Shown here: positions 33,529 to 43,420 of the stretch, piece after piece | Position numbering within the stretch: the stretch's first letter is position 1 | How the letters are laid out: each line of letters begins with the position of its first letter | NCBI RefSeq assembly: GCF_002067035.1 | Contig: NZ_MVQB01000060.1 | Span: forward strand, 103,499 to 167,498 | Length of the DNA stretch: 64,000 nucleotides | Source: Methanoregula sp. PtaB.Bin085 | Lineage (GTDB): Archaea; Halobacteriota; Methanomicrobia; Methanomicrobiales; Methanospirillaceae | Direction of reading: 5' to 3' | The notes under the pieces: generated by a model | What the model saw: only the letters and a program-made list of their open reading frames with translations | Database searches by the model: none | Told to the model about the DNA's origin: nothing | Position numbers and translations under genes: made by a program

Positions 33529-34497
33529 TCATATCTTCTGCCTGAGTTCCTGTATCAGAGCATCGCCGAATTCACGGGTCCCGGTGGTTCCTCCCAGATC
33601 CCTGGTACGAATTCCCCGGTTCAGTACCTGCAGTACGGATTCCTCAATACACCCGGCACCGTTCGGGTCGCCAAGATGATCGAGGAGCATGGCTGCGCTC
33701 CGGATAGCTGCAACAGGGTTTGCAATATTCCTGCCTGCGATATCGGGAGCGCTCCCGTGGACCGGTTCGAAGAGAGCATAGCGATCCCCGATGTTCGCGC
33801 TTGGCACAACGCCAAGGCCTCCCACGAGGTATGCCGCGACGTCGGAGAGGATATCGCCGAACATGTTCGTTGTGACAACCACATCGTAGCTCTTCGGGTG
33901 CTGGAGCAGGTCAAGGGAGAGCGCGTCAATGAACCTGTCGTTGCAAGCGATATTGGCAGCCTTTGCTTCGGAAAGACAGATATCCCGGAAAAAAACGTCT
34001 GATTTGATGACGTTCGCCTTGTGCCCGATGGTCAGGATACCCTTTCTCTGCCGGGCAAGATCAATTGCTTTTCTGATAATCCGTTCTGTACCCTTCCTGC
34101 TGACAACCCGCAGCGTTGTAGCGCGATCGGGGGTCGTCTCTTCAATGCCCGAGTAAAGCCCTTCCGTGTTCTCACGGACGATCATGATATCGATGCCATC
34201 TCCCCTCACAGGCCGGAGATTGGCATACAGATCGAGCGCTTTACGGATCCGCAGGACAACGCTCTGGTAATCCTTCATCGGGGGTGTGGTTATTGCACCG
34301 AACAGGATAGCATCCGAGTTTTTCAGTTGCGCGATATCCGGGTCCGTGCAGGGACATCCTGTCCTCTCCCACCTGCCGTAGCCAACCTCGACATTGAAAA
34401 AGTCATACTCGGGATGCAGCAGTTCGAGCACGCTGCGGGCAACCGGAATAACTTCATGACCGATCCCGTCACCCTCCACGACTGCTATCCGGGTCAT
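33529..34497 (-). CDS. aksF: homoisocitrate / isopropylmalate dehydrogenase family (probable AksF)
   Basis: [16 protein letters not shown]...LFGAITTP...[14 protein letters not shown]...IVRENTEG...NMFGDILSD. Last gene of the aks operon. The aksF versus leuB assignment rests on context. Confidence 0.8.
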
Positions 34498-35294
34498 CCC
34501 CGCCTCCCGCGCGCTGCCAGGGCCCGGACTGCCTCAAGGATCTTTACCGGTTCTGATCCCCAGTGGACGATAGCGCCGCTTTTCCCGTTCCACGATGACA
34601 CTGCTTCCCGTTCGCTCCGGCAGCAGCGGGCTATGAAAGGTTCTTCCCTGACACATTCAAGCGGGCAGATATTGGTGATGGTAAAATCCGAACCGTAACA
34701 TTCGTTCAGGAACTGGGTGGCAGTCAGACAGCCGGCAACCTGCTCCCCGCCATGCATGGCATCGGCATCGAGGGTCCGGGCAAACCCTCCGGCCCGGCAG
34801 GGGTATACATCCGCGCGAACCTCGGTGATATCCCGGATATGGTGCACGAACTGCACATTAAGGTTGCCAAAAAGCCCGGCATTCTCAAGTTCACGGATAC
34901 CGGACGAAAGGCTTGGCCGTGGCGGGCTCACGTCATAGACATGTATCTTCAGGAAACCTGACAGATCGGGATCGAGAACAAAGGTCATGTGTTCGTCGTG
35001 GCCGGAAAAGATCGTGCAGCGGTATCCCGTGTCGAGAGCCAGTTCAACGAGGCGTGTGCGGTTGTGGAGGTTTACCTTTTCCGGATAGTGATAGACCTCG
35101 TTCTCACGGGCGAGGACCCGACTCGAGACAACCTGCCTCATCATGCCTTTGTGGGTCTGGTCCAGGGTAACTTCGAGCAGCTCGTGTCCACCGGAAGTGT
35201 CCCGCAGCAGCCACCGGCTTAAAAAATAAACCCTTTCGTCGCAGGGTTTTGCCGATGCATGACCGACATGCTTGCAGTGCTCCGGAAAGATCAC
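34494..35294 (-). CDS. uncharacterised Cys-rich protein embedded in the aks operon
   Basis: 266 aa if started at GTG 35294 (GTGA overlap with the aksE stop). The 3' end makes an ATGA overlap with the aksF start. Contains CPLEC...CC and several His. No family recognised. An alternative ATG (MMRQVV) would leave a 145-nt gap. Confidence 0.55.
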   Translation of the reverse strand: MIFPEHCKHVGHASAKPCDERVYFLSRWLLRDTSGGHELLEVTLDQTHKGMMRQVVSSRVLARENEVYHYPEKVNLHNRTRLVELALDTGYRCTIFSGHDEHMTFVLDPDLSGFLKIHVYDVSPPRPSLSSGIRELENAGLFGNLNVQFVHHIRDITEVRADVYPCRAGGFARTLDADAMHGGEQVAGCLTATQFLNECYGSDFTITNICPLECVREEPFIARCCRSEREAVSSWNGKSGAIVHWGSEPVKILEAVRALAARGRRG

Positions 35295-35761
35295 GGACGC
35301 CCCCTCCAGTACCTGATCAGGCCTCCCGCTGCGAGAATGTCCCGCATCCTCGGGGAAAGGGGCCGGATAGAATAGGTATTCCCGCCGGTTTCCACGCATC
35401 CTGCCGCGAGATCGAATTTCACATTCTGCCCTTCCACGCACGGAAGGCTGCATTCTATGGCCGGAAGACCGACATTTATGGCATTCCGGAAAAAGATCCG
35501 GGCAAATGACGGTGCAATTACTGCTGTAACACCAGCTTCCTTCAGCGCCAGCGCTGCCTGTTCACGCGAGGACCCGCAGCCGAAATTCTTTCCGGCTACA
35601 ATGACCGCCCCGTTCATCCGGGCTGCAAGCGAGGGATCGAGATCCTCGAACACATGGGAAACCCATATTCCGTGATCCTTTGTTCTCAGGTAACGCCCGG
35701 CTATGATCAGATCCGTGTCGATGTCCGGACCGAGACAGACCGCATGACCTCCCCCCTGCAT
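35291..35761 (-). CDS. aksE: homoaconitase small subunit (AksE/HacB)
   Basis: LeuD-like swivel domain (DTDLIIAGRYL..., GKNFGCGSSREQAA). The specificity loop reads YLRT with Arg26-Thr27, the homoaconitase-type residues of M. jannaschii HacB. Confidence 0.85.
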   Translation of the reverse strand: MQGGGHAVCLGPDIDTDLIIAGRYLRTKDHGIWVSHVFEDLDPSLAARMNGAVIVAGKNFGCGSSREQAALALKEAGVTAVIAPSFARIFFRNAINVGLPAIECSLPCVEGQNVKFDLAAGCVETGGNTYSIRPLSPRMRDILAAGGLIRYWRGRP

Positions 35762-36970
35762 TCATCCCACCTCCGGTTCGGTGATCTCACCAGTGAGGGC
35801 GCTCGCACCAGCGGTTGCAACGGATGAGAGATATATTTCTCCGCCAACTCCCATCCGGTTCCTGAAATTCCGGTTTGCTGTGGAGAGGCAGACTTCGCCT
35901 TCACCAAGAACCCCCATGTGCGCCCCGAGACACGGCCCGCAGCCGGGCGTACCGATCGTGCATCCCGCCGCCACGAGATCCGCGATAACCCCCGTGCGGA
36001 TCGCTTCTGAAAGGACTGCCCGCGATGCCGGGACAACAATGGTCCGTACTGCAACGTTCTTTCCTTTCAGGATCCCTGCAAGGCGGGCAAGATCGCTGAA
36101 ACGCCCGTTTGTGCAGGCACCGACAAAGACCTGGTCGATAGGGATACCGGCCAGGTCACTGACGGGTTTTACCGTGTCCACCCGTGGCGGCACCGCAATG
36201 AGCGGGACGATATCGCTCAGATCAAATTCCAGTTCCCGGCTGTACATGCAGGAGTCCGGGACCTGGGGCTGAACTTTCTGTCCCTTGCCTGCAAGGTACT
36301 GCAAGGTAATGTGGTCAGCATAGAACATGCCGGTCTTGGCACCGGTCTCCACCGAGAGATTGCAGAGCGTCAGCCGGTCATCCATTCCAAGGTTCTTTAC
36401 CCCGTCTCCAATAAATTCGAGGGCACAGTATGTCCCTCCGTCCATCCCAAGCCTGCTGACATACAGGAGGGCGAGGTCTTTTGCCTCCGCACTACCCTGC
36501 AGCGACCCGGTGAGGCTGATGCCGATGGAGTCCGGGACCCGGAACCAGGTCTCTCCGGTCAGCCATATCGCTGCCATGTCCGTTGCACCGACACCGGTCG
36601 CGAACGCACCGAACGCGCCGGGTGTACAGCTGTGCGAGTCGGCCCCGACAACCACCTCGCCTGGCAACACGACACCTTCACTCATCAGCTGATGGCAGAT
36701 CCCGCCTCCGATATCGGAGAAGTGCATGAACGACCCGCAGGCAAAATCACGGAGTTCGTGCTGGAGGGTGGCCGTGGTGGAGTTGTTCGCCGGGACGATG
36801 TGGTCGAAAAGAACATACAGGTCCGGATCGTCGCTCAACCGGTTGCCCATCTGCTTCCAGGTTTCGAGTGTCAGCACACCGGTCCCGTCGTGGACATAGG
36901 CCCGGTCCACTTTCCTGTCCACATACTCCCCTGCATCTGCTCCGAGGATTCGTTCCGAGAGCGTGCTCAT
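35762..36970 (-). CDS. aksD: homoaconitase large subunit (AksD/HacA)
   Basis: Aconitase-family large subunit (VGADSHSCT, ...GACTNGR..., PGCGPCLG cluster ligands). Start at MSTLSERILG (ATG 36970) forms an ATGA overlap with the aksA stop. Confidence 0.85.
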   Translation of the reverse strand: MSTLSERILGADAGEYVDRKVDRAYVHDGTGVLTLETWKQMGNRLSDDPDLYVLFDHIVPANNSTTATLQHELRDFACGSFMHFSDIGGGICHQLMSEGVVLPGEVVVGADSHSCTPGAFGAFATGVGATDMAAIWLTGETWFRVPDSIGISLTGSLQGSAEAKDLALLYVSRLGMDGGTYCALEFIGDGVKNLGMDDRLTLCNLSVETGAKTGMFYADHITLQYLAGKGQKVQPQVPDSCMYSRELEFDLSDIVPLIAVPPRVDTVKPVSDLAGIPIDQVFVGACTNGRFSDLARLAGILKGKNVAVRTIVVPASRAVLSEAIRTGVIADLVAAGCTIGTPGCGPCLGAHMGVLGEGEVCLSTANRNFRNRMGVGGEIYLSSVATAGASALTGEITEPEVG

Positions 36971-38094
36971 GCAGGAGACTCCTTTACTTTCCGGATCAGC
37001 TTCCTCAGCACCTCCGGCGTTATGTTGCACTTGTGCTCGGAATGGTCCTTGACAAGGTCGAGCACCCTGCAGACCTGCTTCTCCGAAAGCTCACAGCCCA
37101 TTGAGGAGACGACATGTTCGAGTGCCTTCTTCCCGGTGTGTTTCCCGAGGATGAAATGCCGCTCGCTGCCCACGAGATCCGGAGGGAAGTACTCGTACGT
37201 GGCGGGATCGTCGAGAATGGCGGCAATGTGGATTCCGCTCTCGTGCGAGAACGCAAGCTCCCCGGTGACGGGCTTGTTCCGCGGGAGGGAGACACCGGAA
37301 TACTTTTCCACCATGTGCGAGAGTTCCGTAAGGTGCGAGAGGTCGTAGCGGTCGATCCCCTTCTTCATCCGGAGGGCGACGAGAAGCTCCTCGAGCGATG
37401 CGTTCCCCGCCCGCTCCCCGATTCCGTTGACCGTGGTATGGAGCTGGAAGGCACCTGCCTCAGCAGCCGTGATTGTATTAGCCACCGCGCAACCCATGTC
37501 GTTGTGGCAGTGGGCACAGAATGGCCGGTCTACGGATGCGACAAGCTCGGTCATAATCCGCTGCATGTCGGAGGGTATGAGGCAGCCCACGGTATCTGCG
37601 AACGAGAGCAGGACTGCACCGTGCTCTGCAGCCCGCCGGTATACCTCCTTGAGGAAACCGAGATCCGTCCGGGATGCGTCTTCGGCAGCAAACCGTACCT
37701 GGACACCATGGTCACGGGCATAATCGATCATTCTCAGGGAGTCCTCAAGTACCTGATGCCGGGGTTTTTTGAATTTTACACGGACATGGAGTTCCGAGGT
37801 CGGGATGAAGATACTGACCATGTCGACACCACAGTCGATTGCGGTCTGGATATCGGCTTCCTTTGCCCGCGAGAAACCACAGATACGGGCATCGAGCCCG
37901 AGATGTGCTATGGTTTTCACACACTCTTTCTCATTTGCCGACACCGCCGGGAACCCGGCCTCGATGACTTCGATCCCGATCTCGTCGAGTCTGGTTGCGA
38001 TAGCAACCTTCTCCTGGCAGGAGAACGAGACTCCAGGCGTCTGTTCCCCGTCCCGCAGGGTCACATCACAGATCTCAATATGCAACGGTTTCAT
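36967..38094 (-). CDS. aksA: homocitrate synthase-type 2-oxoacid:acetyl-CoA condensing enzyme (probable AksA)
   Basis: DRE-TIM core (ICDVTLRDGEQTPGV...HCHNDMGCAVAN...GIGERAGN). Only 375 aa, so it lacks the LeuA/CimA C-terminal regulatory domain, as AksA does. Confidence 0.8.
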   Translation of the reverse strand: MKPLHIEICDVTLRDGEQTPGVSFSCQEKVAIATRLDEIGIEVIEAGFPAVSANEKECVKTIAHLGLDARICGFSRAKEADIQTAIDCGVDMVSIFIPTSELHVRVKFKKPRHQVLEDSLRMIDYARDHGVQVRFAAEDASRTDLGFLKEVYRRAAEHGAVLLSFADTVGCLIPSDMQRIMTELVASVDRPFCAHCHNDMGCAVANTITAAEAGAFQLHTTVNGIGERAGNASLEELLVALRMKKGIDRYDLSHLTELSHMVEKYSGVSLPRNKPVTGELAFSHESGIHIAAILDDPATYEYFPPDLVGSERHFILGKHTGKKALEHVVSSMGCELSEKQVCRVLDLVKDHSEHKCNITPEVLRKLIRKVKESPA

Positions 38095-39346
38095 GACTGC
38101 ATCCCTCCGGACAAACTCCTTCCACAACAAGTGTTCGCGGCGTGTCCGTCACCACGAGTTCACGTTCAAGCGTCCGGATCTCCCCCGCCCCGCAGACCAC
38201 GGGTGTTGCCCATGACAGGTAAGGGAGGGGATCCGGCACCGGCTGCCCGCCGGTCATGGCCGCACGGGTATTCTTCATAACGATACAGAGCATCGGAAGC
38301 TGTCCGGTATATACATCAATGAGTGCATTCAGGCCGGAATGGAGCAGCGCATAATCACCAATAAGGGCAACCTTTGTGCTCCGTGCAGCGACTGCTATAC
38401 TTGCTCCCATGCCATAACTTGCCATCCCAAGTTCGTACGGGCGGTTCATCGCCAGGATCGAACAGCCGGCATCGCAGATCACCTGCATACCCCGCTCCTT
38501 CAGGATCTTCAGCATCTGGTGATAGGGGCAGTTCCGGCAGAACGTCCGGGAGAAGCCCCTGCCTTCCATTGTTGCAGGTGGCCCCCGGGGTTCCGGAGGC
38601 AGAACTCCCCGATGGTACCGGATGAAGGCACGACCGCACTCATGAACCTCATGGATCCCTGCTGCCTGTGCCGGTACCGGGTTCACGGTCACGATCCGGG
38701 TCGTTCCGGGAGCCGGGCCGGCCCCGGCAGGTCCGCCATGCCAGTGGTTCAGCGGCGAATCGGTTGACCAGTCGGACATCCGGCGGTACAACTCGCCTGC
38801 CGCAGTTGCCCGACCATTCATCGTCCATGCCCGGTTCGCGAGCCGGCCCCGCCGGTCAGCGCGTTGCACGGGGAGATCCTTCGCCTCCGCATCCAGGACG
38901 CCGGGAGTCAGCCGGAGCAGGGTCACCCGTGAGAACTCTTCCGATGCCTGAAACGCAGCTTCGACCGCCGCGTGGAAGCAGGACGGATCCGGTTCGATGA
39001 CCGGTATTTCGGCAAGCTCTCCGTAATACCGCGAATCCTGGGCAGTCTGCGATCCCTTTGCCTCCGGGTCATCGCCGGCCACGAGCACGACTCCGGCGAC
39101 CAGGCCCTGGTTCACGGCCTGGACGAGAGGATCGGCACACGCGTTCACCCCGACATTCTTGACGATGACTGCAGCCCGCCTGCCTGCGATAGAATCGCCA
39201 AGAGCATATTCCAGGGCAGTCTTCTCGTTGATAACGAGCCTGGCTCCGGCAAGGATCGCAAGATCTGTGATCGGGTAGCCCGGAACGGTGTACAGCCGAT
39301 CGGTCGATCGGATAAGTGCATCCGCCACAACCGCTGAACCGTTCAT
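38075..39346 (-). CDS. thiamine-diphosphate enzyme, IorA-like but lacking ferredoxin domain and beta subunit
   Basis: The N-terminal Pyr domain (VPGYPITDL...NEKTALEYALGDSIAGRRAAVIVKNVGVNACADPL) and C-terminal PP domain (FCRNCPYHQ...DAGCS...GMGASIAVA...IGDYALLHSG...NTRAAMTGGQP) resemble indolepyruvate:ferredoxin oxidoreductase alpha. There is no CxxCxxCxxxC module. ATGA overlap with the radical SAM stop. Confidence 0.75.
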   Translation of the reverse strand: MNGSAVVADALIRSTDRLYTVPGYPITDLAILAGARLVINEKTALEYALGDSIAGRRAAVIVKNVGVNACADPLVQAVNQGLVAGVVLVAGDDPEAKGSQTAQDSRYYGELAEIPVIEPDPSCFHAAVEAAFQASEEFSRVTLLRLTPGVLDAEAKDLPVQRADRRGRLANRAWTMNGRATAAGELYRRMSDWSTDSPLNHWHGGPAGAGPAPGTTRIVTVNPVPAQAAGIHEVHECGRAFIRYHRGVLPPEPRGPPATMEGRGFSRTFCRNCPYHQMLKILKERGMQVICDAGCSILAMNRPYELGMASYGMGASIAVAARSTKVALIGDYALLHSGLNALIDVYTGQLPMLCIVMKNTRAAMTGGQPVPDPLPYLSWATPVVCGAGEIRTLERELVVTDTPRTLVVEGVCPEGCSHETVAY

Positions 39347-40311
39347 CCGTCCCTCCCCGGAACGAGATCGCATCCGCAGCAGTTCGTGCACATCGTGACA
39401 GCCTGCCAGGGATCGAGACCTGCTTGTTCAAGTGCGTCTTTGTGGATGGCAAAGATCTTCCTGAGCCGTTCCGCGGTCGGCCGGGGCGTCCCGGCCATCC
39501 CGGCAACCGGGTTGAGGGGTCGAAGGACCGGGATGACCCCATGGGATGTCAGCTGCCGGATGCATGCCTCCATCTCATCATCTGTTTCCCCAAGGCCGAT
39601 GATGACATTGGAAAAGACGCGGTTCTTTCCGAAGAGTTCCACGGATCGATCGAGAACCTGCCAGAGCAGACCGTAATCGAGGCCCGGGCACATCTGTGCA
39701 AAAAGATCAGGGGTCGCTGCCTCGAGATTGAACTTCACTTCCGCAACTCCGAGTGCCTTCAGCCGATCGGGAGTCTGCCCCGTGGGATAGATCGAGACAC
39801 CGATGGGGAGGTTAAAGAATGTGAGGTGTTTTACGACATTCAGCACGTATGCCTCCTCCTCTCCGATGGTCTCAAGGACTCCGCTGGTGACGGAGATCGC
39901 ATGGATTCGGTGCACTGCCGGTTCAACCATCCCCATGATCTCCCCGATGGTCTTACGCCTTCCCCCGAGGGTCGGGACCGGGCAGTACCGGCACCTGAAT
40001 ATACAACTACCGGTGACCGTGATGAACGCCTGGTCGGGGCAGTGGTACCCGGGTTCCAGAAGCCGTCCTGTGGCCTGGTTCCCGTCATAGAAGAGATCCG
40101 CAATCCCGTTCCCGCGGTGGGCGATCTCGATATCTCCCAGAGGGTCCAGCGCGAGCCTGACGCGGTGGCTCCCCATGGCAAAGAAGACTGATCCCTTCCC
40201 ACCGGCTCCCGGGCCGGCAGCTGAACGGGCAATGAACTGGTCCGCCGGCTCACCGCTCAGCCGGGCCGTCCCTGCTTCGAGCAGCCTTGCCTTCAGGTCT
40301 TTCCACTGCAT
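39343..40311 (-). CDS. radical SAM enzyme (BioB/LipA-like core) with C-terminal CxxCCxC motif
   Basis: CIFRCRYC (CxxxCxxC) after an approximately 100-aa N-terminal domain; IIGLGETDDE motif; C-terminus MCTNCCGCDL. Confidence 0.85.
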   Translation of the reverse strand: MQWKDLKARLLEAGTARLSGEPADQFIARSAAGPGAGGKGSVFFAMGSHRVRLALDPLGDIEIAHRGNGIADLFYDGNQATGRLLEPGYHCPDQAFITVTGSCIFRCRYCPVPTLGGRRKTIGEIMGMVEPAVHRIHAISVTSGVLETIGEEEAYVLNVVKHLTFFNLPIGVSIYPTGQTPDRLKALGVAEVKFNLEAATPDLFAQMCPGLDYGLLWQVLDRSVELFGKNRVFSNVIIGLGETDDEMEACIRQLTSHGVIPVLRPLNPVAGMAGTPRPTAERLRKIFAIHKDALEQAGLDPWQAVTMCTNCCGCDLVPGRDG

Positions 40312-41189
40312 AATTCCAGCGCCTCCTCATACCGGGTAAAGAAGGGGATTGCCGCCACAGCCCCCGTAATGCCCCGCCCGTGGATGATAATACGGAGACA
40401 AGGGTCCCGGATCGATGAAATGAGTCCGGAATCGACCTCTCCCCGTTTGACCTTCCTTCCGTATTCAAGCAGATTGTCTGATACGGAAAAACCGGAATAC
40501 ACCGCCATGCCGGTCTTCGTTGAGAGGGTGTATTTCTCCAGCAGCGTACGGAACCTGCTGATGAGGCTTTCCGGATCAGTTGTCGCGAACTCAGCAGCCA
40601 GAGCAACACAGTTCTTGGTGCGGTACGCAACCGGGAAGAGCTGCACAATCGTATGCGACAGGTACACAGTATGTTCATCCTCAACTGAACGGGAGATATT
40701 GTGGACGAGTGTCCATGTCGCTCCCTCATCAGGAGTATCCGTATCATCTACGCCGATCACGATCCGCTGCATCCGTTGCAGCCAGAGGGTGGCCCCGGCA
40801 ACTTTCCCGCCACCGGCAGGATCGCTCCTGCTCCGCAGTACGCCTGTGGCATCGGACCGGCAGGCCGCAGCTCCCACACCTCCGCCACCCATACCGATAT
40901 ACGTCACTGCGATCTCGTCGCCGTCAACAATGCAGGACGAGATTCCGGCAGGAAACCGCGAACCCTCAAGAGCCAGATCGACACTCCCGGCCTTCAGGAG
41001 ATACCGCATGGTGGAACCTACACAGCGGACATCTTCAACAATCGGACTCTGCGCATAGTGCTTTTTCGACCACATTGCCCCGCCGGTACAGTCAAAGAAC
41101 TCGATGAGCTCGACCCGCTTTCCTGCCGAATCGGCCACCGCCGCGATCCGCGGGTAGTGGATCACGTACGGATCAGAGATGCTCTCCAT
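40293..41189 (-). CDS. TiaS-kinase-domain-like protein, paralogue 2
   Basis: 298 aa. The C-terminal half has IVIGVDDTDTPDEGATW...VQLFPVAYRTKNC...IHGRGITGAVAA, resembling the N-terminal kinase module of tRNA agmatidine synthetase TiaS (from memory). N-terminal Gly-rich loop GMGGGGVGAAAC. Paralogous to 41173-42129. Confidence 0.7.
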   Translation of the reverse strand: MESISDPYVIHYPRIAAVADSAGKRVELIEFFDCTGGAMWSKKHYAQSPIVEDVRCVGSTMRYLLKAGSVDLALEGSRFPAGISSCIVDGDEIAVTYIGMGGGGVGAAACRSDATGVLRSRSDPAGGGKVAGATLWLQRMQRIVIGVDDTDTPDEGATWTLVHNISRSVEDEHTVYLSHTIVQLFPVAYRTKNCVALAAEFATTDPESLISRFRTLLEKYTLSTKTGMAVYSGFSVSDNLLEYGRKVKRGEVDSGLISSIRDPCLRIIIHGRGITGAVAAIPFFTRYEEALELCSGKT

Positions 41190-42129
41190 ACAGGCCTGCC
41201 GCCTCGGTTCCCCTATTGCCCCATACTACGGCCCCGAGAGCCCCGATCCGTCCCTTTCCGCCGGTCCGGTCGAGATACTCGATTCCCAGCGTTTCTGCTT
41301 CACGCTCTGCCTCATCCATAGAAAGGATTTCGGTCTTGATCCACTTCGCAACGGGTGCATCGGAAAAATCCCTGATCCCGTGGTAACAGGCTATGCCGGT
41401 CTCCCTGGAGAACGTGTTCTTTTCCACGAATGCCCGGACCGATTCCAGCAGGACCGGGATCCGGGCCGGCTTCACCGCGAAGTTCAGGGAGGTACTGACG
41501 CAGTTCGTGGTTTTGTGCGGGACCGCGGGATTGAGCTGGACGAGCCGCATATTCAAAAACTCGACTCCTTCCATCCTGCAGGCTTCGGCACACTTCAGTG
41601 CCATTACCCACGTCGCCCCGTCTGTCTTCGTGTCCGTGTCATCGATACCGATACAGATTTTCTCGTACCGCGGCGAGACGATACGGACATGGTTGGTCCG
41701 GGCACCGCCAACTTTTAAATCCTCATCAGAAGGATATTCCGTTCTGATGACGCCGGGGGCCTGCGGGAGGCAGGCTGCAACGCCAATACCGGCACCCGCA
41801 ATCCCTGCCCAGCTGGTGATCACCTCGTCTCCCGCGACTTCGACGCCTTCCAGCGCCTGCCCTCCGATATCCCCGGCTGCCGATCCGAAGTTCACCGGGA
41901 ATTTCCCGAGCTTTGCGTGAATGGTCATGGAGGACCCTTCAATCTCGCACCGGACAACTGCACCACCGGCCCTGCGACGGTTCATAGCATCCCATTCAAT
42001 TGTGCCCCGGACCCGGCACTGCTCATGGATCTCGGCAACGCCCGCCCGTTCATCCACCAGTACCAGGAATTTTTGTGCAAAGAGCGGCCCGAACCGCTTT
42101 TTCACGTCGTCAGGAATCAGGGTGATCAT
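41173..42129 (-). CDS. TiaS-kinase-domain-like protein, paralogue 1
   Basis: 318 aa. ICIGIDDTDTKTDGATW...RLVQLNPAVPHKTTNC...GGKGRIGALGAV plus N-terminal GIAGAGIGVAAC. First gene of the operon, with TTTAAATA (42174-42181) upstream. Confidence 0.7.
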   Translation of the reverse strand: MITLIPDDVKKRFGPLFAQKFLVLVDERAGVAEIHEQCRVRGTIEWDAMNRRRAGGAVVRCEIEGSSMTIHAKLGKFPVNFGSAAGDIGGQALEGVEVAGDEVITSWAGIAGAGIGVAACLPQAPGVIRTEYPSDEDLKVGGARTNHVRIVSPRYEKICIGIDDTDTKTDGATWVMALKCAEACRMEGVEFLNMRLVQLNPAVPHKTTNCVSTSLNFAVKPARIPVLLESVRAFVEKNTFSRETGIACYHGIRDFSDAPVAKWIKTEILSMDEAEREAETLGIEYLDRTGGKGRIGALGAVVWGNRGTEAAGLYGEHL

Positions 42130-42216: not shown

Positions 42217-43101
42217 TCAGAGGACTTTGTGCAGATCGATTTTATAGGGACCGAGCGTACCGCCAAAGTTCCCGGCCGAGATAAACCTGACACCGGGTAC
42301 CATGACTGCAGCCCTGATACCAGCGGACATTGCCTCGGCAACCGACTTTTCATCAACCCCATCGATCACAATCTCGTACACTGCCTTAATTCCGGCAGGG
42401 ATCTTGCTGTCGGGGACTTTCTCGCGGAGGGTCGGGCAGTATTTTTCATTGGTGGAAGCAACCATGAATTTGTACTTGTTGCTGCCTACCTTTGAACCGC
42501 TTGCTACAATACCTCCGGGGAAGCTCGTGATGACACCCTTTACCCTGGCAATCGCATCGGATGCAGCCTGTGCACCCATGAGGGCTGCCATCTGGTTCTC
42601 ACCCATAACAAAGAAGTTGCCGCCGGCAACACCCTTGACGATGCCGAACTCTTCCTCACCGACATACTCCCCGTTCATGATCGGGATGACCCAGCACTTG
42701 CGGCCGCCGACTTCTTTCTGGTACTCGTATCCGTCGCCAAAGAAGTGGAGTTTCACCGGTATCTTTTCTTCGGCATTGGTAATGCCGTTGAAGACCGCGG
42801 TGGTTGGTGCCGTAAGAACGCACTCGGCGAGGCGCTCGACAACCTGCTCCTTCAGTTTCTTCTTACCGGCACAGATCAGGATGGCAACACCAGGGCGCCC
42901 GTCAGGAGTTTCTCCAGCCGGAACATCTCCCTCGATTCCTGCCTCGCACGGGCAGCCGATTGCCGATGTGGCAAAGCCGGTTGCCTCAGTTGCTGCTTTC
43001 CTCGCCCATTCAGTAGTGACCGCAGTTATGATAATCCGGCAAACCCATGTCGGGAATGCCTCTGCATACGTATTGTCAATTGTAACGCCATTGATTTCCA
43101 T
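42217..43101 (-). CDS. ftr: formylmethanofuran:tetrahydromethanopterin N-formyltransferase
   Basis: MEINGVTIDNTYAEAFPTW...FFGDGYEYQKE...GGNFFVMGENQ..., 294 aa, full-length Ftr. GGAGGT lies before ATG 43101. Confidence 0.95.
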   Translation of the reverse strand: MEINGVTIDNTYAEAFPTWVCRIIITAVTTEWARKAATEATGFATSAIGCPCEAGIEGDVPAGETPDGRPGVAILICAGKKKLKEQVVERLAECVLTAPTTAVFNGITNAEEKIPVKLHFFGDGYEYQKEVGGRKCWVIPIMNGEYVGEEEFGIVKGVAGGNFFVMGENQMAALMGAQAASDAIARVKGVITSFPGGIVASGSKVGSNKYKFMVASTNEKYCPTLREKVPDSKIPAGIKAVYEIVIDGVDEKSVAEAMSAGIRAAVMVPGVRFISAGNFGGTLGPYKIDLHKVL

Positions 43102-43420
43102 ACAATAACCTCCGGTACTACAAAGGTACCATGATGGTGACTGAATAAATTTTCTAATTTGATTTGGCTGTTTCTGACCGGAACGATAAGAATACAAGAG
43201 CGCAGAAAAAAACGGGAAGAAATGGATGGAAAAGTACACAAGATATCATTAACATAGCGATTTTAACGATTTACTTTTCCGGGAAGTATTTAAACAAGAG
43301 GAAAAGAAAATCGGATAAAAGCTCAGAAATTCTCGTTCAATTTCAGAACATTTATCTACATTCTTTTACCACGTTTTGTTAGTCGATTTTCAGAATCGAT
43401 CTATAGCTGGTGCGTGAAAA

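Follow-up and report, generated by a model that had tools for sequence, protein, structure and literature searches.

LipS2, a radical S-adenosylmethionine (SAM) enzyme from Thermococcus kodakarensis, converts octanoyl-lysine to 8-mercaptooctanoyl-lysine by attack at the terminal carbon, and mutagenesis has identified C85 together with the C-terminal residues C276 and C279 as ligands of its auxiliary [4Fe-4S] cluster (PMC9585515). Type II biotin synthase (BioB) carries an auxiliary 4Fe-5S cluster whose ligands include C138 and C198 (PMC10813225), and in Xanthobacter the [2Fe-2S] protein XcbA reduces sulfoethanethioaldehyde to coenzyme M (PMC9457059). Here we describe a radical SAM protein, P0001, encoded in a 64,000-nucleotide stretch of Methanoregula sp. 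PtaB.Bin085 (contig NZ_MVQB01000060.1, positions 103,499 to 167,498 of the forward strand; hereafter the window). In Halobacteriota methanogens its gene is a constant element of the cluster for coenzyme B (7-mercaptoheptanoyl-threonine phosphate). We tentatively propose that P0001 adds sulfur at C7 of the coenzyme B chain, acting on the product of a decarboxylase, and that an XcbA-like protein then reduces the intermediate, a role that we regard as a real possibility, somewhat short of probable.

Every methyl- and alkyl-coenzyme M reductase requires coenzyme B. Labelling work by R. H. White is said to have provided the outline of its route. AksA, AksD, AksE and AksF make 2-oxosuberate, and the steps past this compound call for a decarboxylase, for sulfur incorporation coupled to a reduction by two electrons, and for a kinase and an amide ligase that uses ATP. 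To our knowledge, the genes for these later steps (decarboxylation, thiol formation, threonine ligation and phosphorylation) are unassigned. The pathway was still called unknown in 2025 (PMC12068725), and we found no publications that assign the P0001 family, Mmp11 or DUF7714 to coenzyme B.

The initial annotation had placed the radical SAM gene inside the aks operon, in agreement with the gene order in the window. The operon genes are closely spaced and all encoded on the minus strand, in the following order of transcription:

42217-43239, minus strand: Ftr
41173-42129, minus strand: Mmp11b, a second, divergent paralogue of methanogenesis marker 11 (TIGR03280, 185 bits, below the cut-off; TiaS_TCKD match)
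40293-41189, minus strand: methanogenesis marker 11 (Mmp11), a TiaS-kinase-domain protein (TIGR03280, 323.7 bits against 255.8; TiaS_TCKD match)
39343-40311, minus strand: radical SAM protein P0001, an uninterrupted open reading frame of 322 amino acids by translation
38075-39346, minus strand: IorA-like thiamine-diphosphate (TPP) enzyme, presumed 2-oxosuberate decarboxylase (partial IOR_alpha and TPP_enzyme_C matches)
36967-38130, minus strand: AksA-type homocitrate synthase, with its start between 38094 and 38130
35762-37030, minus strand: homoaconitase large subunit, AksD/HacA type (profile matches)
35291-35761, minus strand: homoaconitase small subunit, AksE/HacB type (open reading frame; syntenic Aconitase_C genes in loci L108 and L213; tblastn match in locus L022)
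34494-35294, minus strand: DUF7714 protein, XcbA-family homologue (PF24830, 290.8 bits)
33529-34497, minus strand: AksF-type homoisocitrate dehydrogenase (profile matches)

The plus-strand frame over 39343-40311 is broken and the intact frame is found on the minus strand only. The start of the radical SAM gene overlaps Mmp11 by 19 nucleotides, the TPP enzyme likely starts at an ATGA that overlaps the radical SAM stop codon, and the four aks genes (AksA, AksD, AksE, AksF) come after it in the same orientation. Further on, still inside the window, are the operons for hdr and mcr. The DUF7714 protein aligns with nearly the whole CoM_XcbA_fam profile (NF052538) with an E value of 1.5e-15, its 57 bits lying under the cut-off of 150. 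The IorA-like enzyme is without a ferredoxin domain; a conserved Cys pair of the FCRNCPY type lies between its two TPP domains. Mmp11b is a tandem duplicate about 30-35% identical to Mmp11, and most of the Methanomicrobiales operons examined have it, as does L213, whereas L108, L110 and L016 do not.

The nearest homologues of P0001 come from Methanoregula, and the order Mmp11b-Mmp11-radical SAM-TPP-AksA-AksD-AksE-DUF7714-AksF is conserved in the Methanomicrobiales loci examined. In 11 other Methanomicrobiales loci (L002-L012) the radical SAM gene stands between Mmp11 and the pair formed by the TPP enzyme and AksA, and L022 contains the full cluster through AksF. Adjacency to Mmp11 was seen in L002-L012, L016, L022, L108, L110 and L213. 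A metagenomic lineage whose protein is 47% identical keeps the nine-gene order, beside ftr and hdr, and one at 36% identity (L110) has an overlapping triad of Mmp11, radical SAM and DUF7714 genes. In family f14 of our phylum sample one radical SAM copy adjoins Mmp11 (L016), and a stretch of about 9 kb in f10 and f14 genomes (for example G125, G031, G052 and G179) contains the radical SAM gene together with DUF7714 and a longer homologue of the TPP enzyme. With membership of the coenzyme B cluster defined as co-transcription with aksA, aksD, aksE and aksF, the linkage to aks is thus conserved across lineages.

A search for longer homologues returned two distinct proteins of 719 and 720 amino acids, both from one lineage, in which the radical SAM enzyme is fused to the TPP enzyme:

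L213:8001-10160: fusion protein P0283
L214:2200-4359: fusion protein P0282

All radical SAM motifs are intact in these fusions, including the C-terminal one described below, and a short linker leads into the TPP enzyme, which retains the Cys pair between its TPP domains. The fusion genes lie within an otherwise identical operon running from Ftr, Mmp11b and Mmp11 to AksF. This natural fusion is the strongest single argument that both proteins work either as a complex or on successive intermediates. Outside Methanomicrobiales the unfused TPP homologue is longer (frames of about 500-560 amino acids) and matches in two blocks, residues ~20-200 and 256-420; such genes sit about 5-7 kb from DUF7714 (G125:C6:535243-536520, G031:C1:1966404-1967831 and G009:C1:1486193-1487566). 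Directly downstream of the L110 triad, on the other strand, lie a gene for a tungsten-type aldehyde:ferredoxin oxidoreductase (L110:8932-10551, minus strand) and an aminotransferase gene.

To identify conserved residues we aligned P0001 with 58 representatives of 50%-identity clusters, the paralogue from the same genome and two close relatives (alignment A1, 61 sequences with identities to P0001 of 23-79%). The following motifs stand out:

39982-40005, minus strand: radical SAM cluster motif CX3CX2C (C103, C107 and C110)
39685-39690, minus strand: Cys208-Pro209, candidate fourth ligand or neighbour of a putative auxiliary cluster
39583-39597, minus strand: GLGET motif, residues 239-243, aligned to the GxGE strand in type II BioB
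39367-39396, minus strand: C-terminal TMCxxCxxCD (T306-D315), putative auxiliary Fe-S site

The sequence CIFRCRYC, which the initial annotation had noted behind an N-terminal domain of about 100 residues, corresponds to residues 103-110, and its three Cys are invariant (61 of 61). The GLGET motif that it had also picked out lies within IIGLGETDDE (residues 237-246) and is nearly as well kept, with G239 in 60 and both G241 and E242 in 59 sequences. The third motif needed revision. MCTNCCGCDL (residues 307-316) does place Cys at 308, 311, 312 and 314, within the last 15 residues, but C312, the second Cys of the apparent CxxCCxC, is not conserved; Gly, Thr, Arg and Ala are the most common residues there, and the adjacent column 313 holds Cys in 26 sequences. 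The conserved motif is therefore CxxCxxC, with C311 in 61/61, C308 in 60/61, C314 in 59/61 and D315 in 53/61. Cys208 (60/61) forms part of a CP motif with P209 (57/61), so that the family signature comprises TMCxxCxxCD plus Cys208, four Cys besides those of the SAM cluster and each found in at least 59 sequences. H90, T142, G171, E191 and N195 are invariant as well, and K193 is found in 58 sequences. Conservation on this scale across 61 homologues indicates that the motifs of P0001 are not chance occurrences. P0001 is probably a two-cluster enzyme, as judged from these residues, with a SAM-cleaving [4Fe-4S] cluster on C103/C107/C110 and an auxiliary cluster on C308/C311/C314, with C208 and/or H90 nearby. 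Of the four terminal Cys that had been suggested as possible ligands of an auxiliary cluster, three are conserved family-wide, as is Cys208, which supports the suggestion for these three but not for C312; LipS2, too, uses a C-terminal CxxC and one upstream Cys for its auxiliary cluster (PMC9585515). A complex prediction that paired A1 with the Mmp11 alignment (A4) gave a score of 0.00, from which nothing was drawn.

Sequence profiles and the model fold both place P0001 in the BioB/LipA/LipS2/HydE group, as had been proposed for it under the name BioB/LipA-like. The only Pfam match is Radical_SAM (PF04055; 50.6 bits, cut-off 29.5); the motif, this score and the fold all agree with radical SAM membership, and SAM cleavage is predicted. 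The AlphaFold2 model (predicted local distance difference test score, pLDDT, 95.5) has a core that matches HydE, type II BioB, LipA, MqnE and HydG at template modelling (TM) scores of about 0.5-0.57, with E values of 1e-9 to 1e-7 for HydE, BioB and LipA. A profile search of PDB sequences returned the type II biotin synthases 8vdw and 8vcw first, followed by lipoyl synthases, PylB, ThiH and HydE. P0001 nevertheless lies far below every curated family cut-off: 63.5 bits against 125 for the "variant radical SAM" model NF045502, 62.5 (60.9 in the genome search) against 270 for LipS2 (NF053743), 57.7 against 303.7 for the MSMEG_0568 family (TIGR04043), 24.6 against 310 for LipA (TIGR00510) and 22.5 against 225 for BioB (TIGR00433). 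Partial matches to the MSMEG_0568-type and variant radical SAM proteins of the Nit1C cluster extend to the C-terminal region of P0001; these proteins are distant relatives and P0001 is not a member. We found no clustering with a radical SAM subfamily of known unrelated function, and the closest relatives in sequence, LipS2, type II BioB and LipA, are all sulfur-inserting or two-cluster enzymes.

These matches, together with source annotations that read "biotin synthase-related", might suggest that P0001 is simply the lipoyl synthase (LipS2) or biotin synthase of the organism. We rejected this identity, which is extremely improbable given the scores, the ligand positions and the genome content. 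The scores fall far under their cut-offs, and the positions of the BioB auxiliary ligands are not Cys in P0001. The genome contains no convincing GcvH; its sole GCV_H match reaches 23.6 bits over 46 profile positions in a frame of 593 amino acids. The sole BPL/LplA-family match, which we take to be a biotin ligase, is encoded about 4.5 kb from that frame.

Comparison with individual enzymes shows both likenesses and differences. Type II BioB (PDB 8vcw, 8vdw) is the top PDB sequence match (profile E value 2.7e-13) and also a leading fold match, and it shares the TIM-barrel radical SAM core and the GxGE strand at a TM score of only about 0.5. The auxiliary Cys of BioB enzymes sit on barrel strands (C97/C128/C188 in E. 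coli, C52/C138/C198 in type II), and two parts of P0001, its N-terminal beta domain and its C-terminal Cys triad, are absent from BioB. By manual residue mapping, the catalytic H161 of type II BioB aligns with K193. LipA/LIAS (PDB 5exi-5exk, 4u0o, 8tsk), a two-cluster sulfur donor, matches in fold with TM scores of 0.5-0.6, but P0001 has neither its N-terminal CX4CX5C nor its C-terminal RSSY; the sole Cys before residue 103 is C91, present in 21 of the 61 sequences. HydE (PDB 3ciw, 5fep, 7o1p), whose substrates contain sulfur (thiazolidine or cysteine-bound), provides the leading Foldseek matches (E value 1.5e-9). Identity to HydE is 19-20% and confined to the core, and P0001 lacks a hydrogenase-maturation setting.

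LipS2 is an archaeal two-component lipoyl synthase. Like P0001 it has a BioB-group radical SAM core; the CxxC pair and upstream Cys that bind its auxiliary cluster may have a parallel in the CxxCxxC and C208 of P0001, and its product, a medium-chain acyl amide with a thiolated terminal carbon, resembles the side chain of coenzyme B. The match covers only residues 92-290 of P0001, which has about 60 additional N-terminal residues that form a separate beta domain. The upstream Cys is placed differently (CxxCxxC plus C208 in P0001, C85/C276/C279 in LipS2), the C-termini being compared without alignment. A lipoyl-protein system is not evident in the P0001 genome, unlike for LipS2, and LipS1 is likewise not evident there, although no dedicated search for it was made. 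The gene setting (aks, TPP, XcbA-like, Mmp11) differs as well. Could P0001 nevertheless work in the manner of LipS2 on a heptanoyl substrate, either free or bound to threonine, and thiolate its unactivated terminal methyl group in place of the aldehyde route? The close resemblance between 8-mercaptooctanoyl-lysine (PMC9585515) and 7-mercaptoheptanoyl-threonine speaks for this, as does the rank of LipS2 among the two best NCBIfam matches. We consider it very improbable: apart from the low LipS2 score, the operon keeps a decarboxylase-type TPP enzyme, fused in one lineage, and a homologue of a thioaldehyde reductase. Moreover, the Aks product is a dicarboxylic 2-oxoacid whose C2 becomes C7, which leaves no methyl group to thiolate, and the pathway yields no heptanoyl compound that could serve as substrate. 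The initial annotation had put the gene forward for C-S bond formation at C7 as an alternative to the aldehyde route. The conserved linkage to aks and the fusion to the TPP enzyme keep it a candidate for that bond; the decarboxylase-type enzyme and the reductase homologue argue against a route that replaces the aldehyde one. The presence of these two proteins fits sulfur addition at the aldehyde or thio-carbonyl level better than methyl thiolation.

A scheme can be assembled from the operon on this basis. AksA, AksD, AksE and AksF supply 2-oxosuberate, which the adjacent TPP enzyme would decarboxylate to the C7 aldehyde level. P0001 would attach sulfur at C7, probably sulfide from its auxiliary cluster, to give a thio-carbonyl intermediate that the DUF7714 protein, by homology to XcbA, would reduce to the thiol. 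The two TiaS-like Mmp11 proteins may account for ATP-dependent activation of a carbonyl or carboxylate, threonine ligation and phosphorylation. Sulfur attachment is assigned to the radical SAM enzyme by elimination and homology, since the TPP, XcbA-like and Mmp11 proteins fill the other needs. The radical chemistry could take one of three forms: abstraction of the aldehydic hydrogen and capture of the acyl radical by cluster sulfide, HydE-like chemistry on a cysteine or thiazolidine adduct, or action on a TPP-bound intermediate. In its most far-reaching form the proposal makes the radical SAM enzyme, the TPP decarboxylase and the XcbA-like reductase a new route from 2-oxoacid to thiol, in which the radical SAM enzyme would join sulfide from its auxiliary cluster to a carbon that is TPP-bound or at the aldehyde level, forming the C-S bond; this is possible but rather doubtful. 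We would place at a similarly guarded level the ideas that class II/III methanogens and their methane- and alkane-oxidising relatives have in this enzyme their missing thiol synthase for coenzyme B, and that class I methanogens may use a different, non-homologous solution for coenzyme B, as they do for coenzyme M. In the XcbA route (PMC9457059) and with the COG1900 sulfurtransferases (L-ASST, Mmp16/ComF; PMC12068725) a carbonyl-level carbon is likewise turned into a cofactor or homocysteine thiol. Those systems use no radical SAM enzyme, unlike the scheme proposed here, and the thioaldehyde of bacterial coenzyme M arises through a pyridoxal phosphate enzyme acting on a cysteine adduct; the operon of P0001 does include the XcbA homologue.

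The distribution of the family was examined in a phylum sample of 201 genomes, with E values below 1e-40 taken as strong matches. These were found in every Methanomicrobiales family and in f7, f10, f14 and f24; f12 and f15 have them in part. All families with strong matches carry McrA, and those without McrA have no matches or weak ones. McrA-positive members of f8, f16 and f20 have weak relatives only, so strong homologues occur in most McrA-containing Halobacteriota families and not in every organism that makes coenzyme B. The distribution of DUF7714 is almost identical, except that f12 and f15 lack it. A search with alignment A2 returned Methanomicrobiales only, searches with P0146 and P0272 returned one locus each, and alignment A3 reached homologues of about 30% identity in Methanomassiliicoccales and other Thermoplasmata. 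None of the latter adjoins Mmp11, and 18 of 80 loci have an AksA-like gene at a distance of about 5 kb. Fourteen named control genomes were also read for family models. Marker 11 and McrA match in both control methanogens, DUF7714 matches Methanosarcina acetivorans only, and TIGR04043 and NF045502 match M. acetivorans, Sulfolobus and Synechococcus.

The genome of the window encodes a second radical SAM copy, 48% identical to P0001 (G000:C9:168-1133; locus L013:144-1139), beside the gene for NadA (quinolinate synthase). Maximum-likelihood analysis joined the operon copies in a single clade with good support (100/98), and the second copies group with a Methanosarcina-family copy and with P0128. 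The P0128 gene (L025) is followed by genes for ThiS, a TtuA-like PP-loop ATPase, a cysteine desulfurase (IscS), NifU, ThiF and a second ThiS. A sulfur-relay neighbourhood as a general rule was rejected, as this context is repeated only in part and in one other locus (L017); we treat it as a weak hint. The varied neighbours of second paralogues in many genomes (NadA, ThiM, JAB protease, ThiS/ThiF) raise the question of whether P0001 itself serves another product, such as another thiol cofactor, a modification of methyl-coenzyme M reductase (MCR) or Hdr, or sulfur trafficking, its place in the operon reflecting co-regulation with methanogenesis genes. Close ftr, hdr and mcr genes would fit such a role, as would the matches of the TIGR04043 and NF045502 models in Sulfolobus and Synechococcus and the Thermoplasmatota homologues that lack Mmp11 adjacency. 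Translational coupling within the aks genes, conserved in several families, and the covalent fusion to the TPP enzyme of the operon make this quite unlikely.

Several points weigh against installation of the coenzyme B sulfur by P0001, a role suggested by distant homology and gene context. In f7 (Methanosarcinaceae) the radical SAM, TPP and DUF7714 genes are dispersed, and many genomes carry the second paralogue outside the cluster. C138 and C198 of type II BioB align with G171 (invariant) and S234 (55/61) of P0001, so the auxiliary site of P0001 is not that of BioB. C7 is already an aldehyde after decarboxylation, and hydrogen abstraction is not obviously needed. Methanocaldococcus jannaschii makes coenzyme B, and its genome gave no match to TIGR04043, NF045502 or DUF7714 in the control read-outs of these related models. 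Going by this indirect test, the radical SAM family cannot be a universal solution for coenzyme B, and class I methanogens would seem to make the cofactor without it. Finally, COG1900 enzymes (L-ASST, Mmp16) carry out analogous aldehyde-to-thiol steps in methanogens (PMC12068725), and the 98%-complete genome of the window contains one COG1900/HcyBio gene (C13:139823-140836). No methanogenesis marker 16 (ComF) was found above the cut-off in this genome (best score 156.9 bits, cut-off 364). The organism may depend on an outside supply of coenzyme M as an auxotroph, or it may form the thiol of that cofactor in another way.

Some of these observations would be accommodated if P0001 acted in the coenzyme B pathway alongside the TPP enzyme as its radical or redox partner, accepting electrons from hydroxyalkyl-TPP, for instance, or altering the chain, with a COG1900 sulfurtransferase of the L-ASST or Mmp16 type, possibly together with DUF7714, making the thiol. 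The radical SAM enzyme is fused or adjacent to an IorA-like enzyme that has lost its own Fe-S domain, a COG1900 gene is available in the genome, and COG1900 enzymes, which serve the homocysteine and coenzyme M steps, have been suggested for coenzyme B (PMC12068725). The failure to detect the radical SAM family in M. jannaschii with related family models would also fit. Opposed to this are the nearest characterised relatives of P0001, which are all sulfur-inserting, the conserved auxiliary Cys set, which resembles that of LipS2, and the sulfur-carrier genes that adjoin a radical SAM paralogue. The genome, moreover, has only the one COG1900 gene and no Mmp16 above the cut-off. We regard the redox-partner role as unlikely, and sulfur installation at C7 by the radical SAM enzyme as the preferred reading.

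The operon offers one candidate for each missing step of coenzyme B synthesis, the radical SAM enzyme being the candidate for the chemically hardest one. If the proposed role is correct, the pathway needed for MCR expression in other hosts would be complete, methane mitigation would gain a specific target, and a new reaction type would be added to the auxiliary-cluster radical SAM enzymes. The radical SAM-TPP fusion proteins are ready-made constructs for coupled assays. New in this work are the fusion itself, the comparison with BioB and LipS2 at the level of residues, the tree of paralogues, the co-distribution of McrA, DUF7714 and the TPP enzyme, and indirect evidence that M. jannaschii lacks the family.

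The part of P0001 that precedes the radical SAM core was delimited with alignments A1 and A5:

40021-40311, minus strand: N-terminal beta-rich domain, residues 1-97 (domain model pLDDT 88)

This domain consists of a helix and six strands, contains a conserved AGPxAG loop (G33, P34) and stops just past the invariant H90-x-P92. Foldseek found no solved-fold relative in the PDB (best E value 0.31), and a VIA-wide search gave no convincing fold match, with lipoprotein-like beta sheets on top (best Z score 3.5). The whole-length fold of P0001, including the N-terminal domain, is common to clusters of bacterial MSMEG_0568-like radical SAM proteins, including one with a fused ATP-grasp domain.

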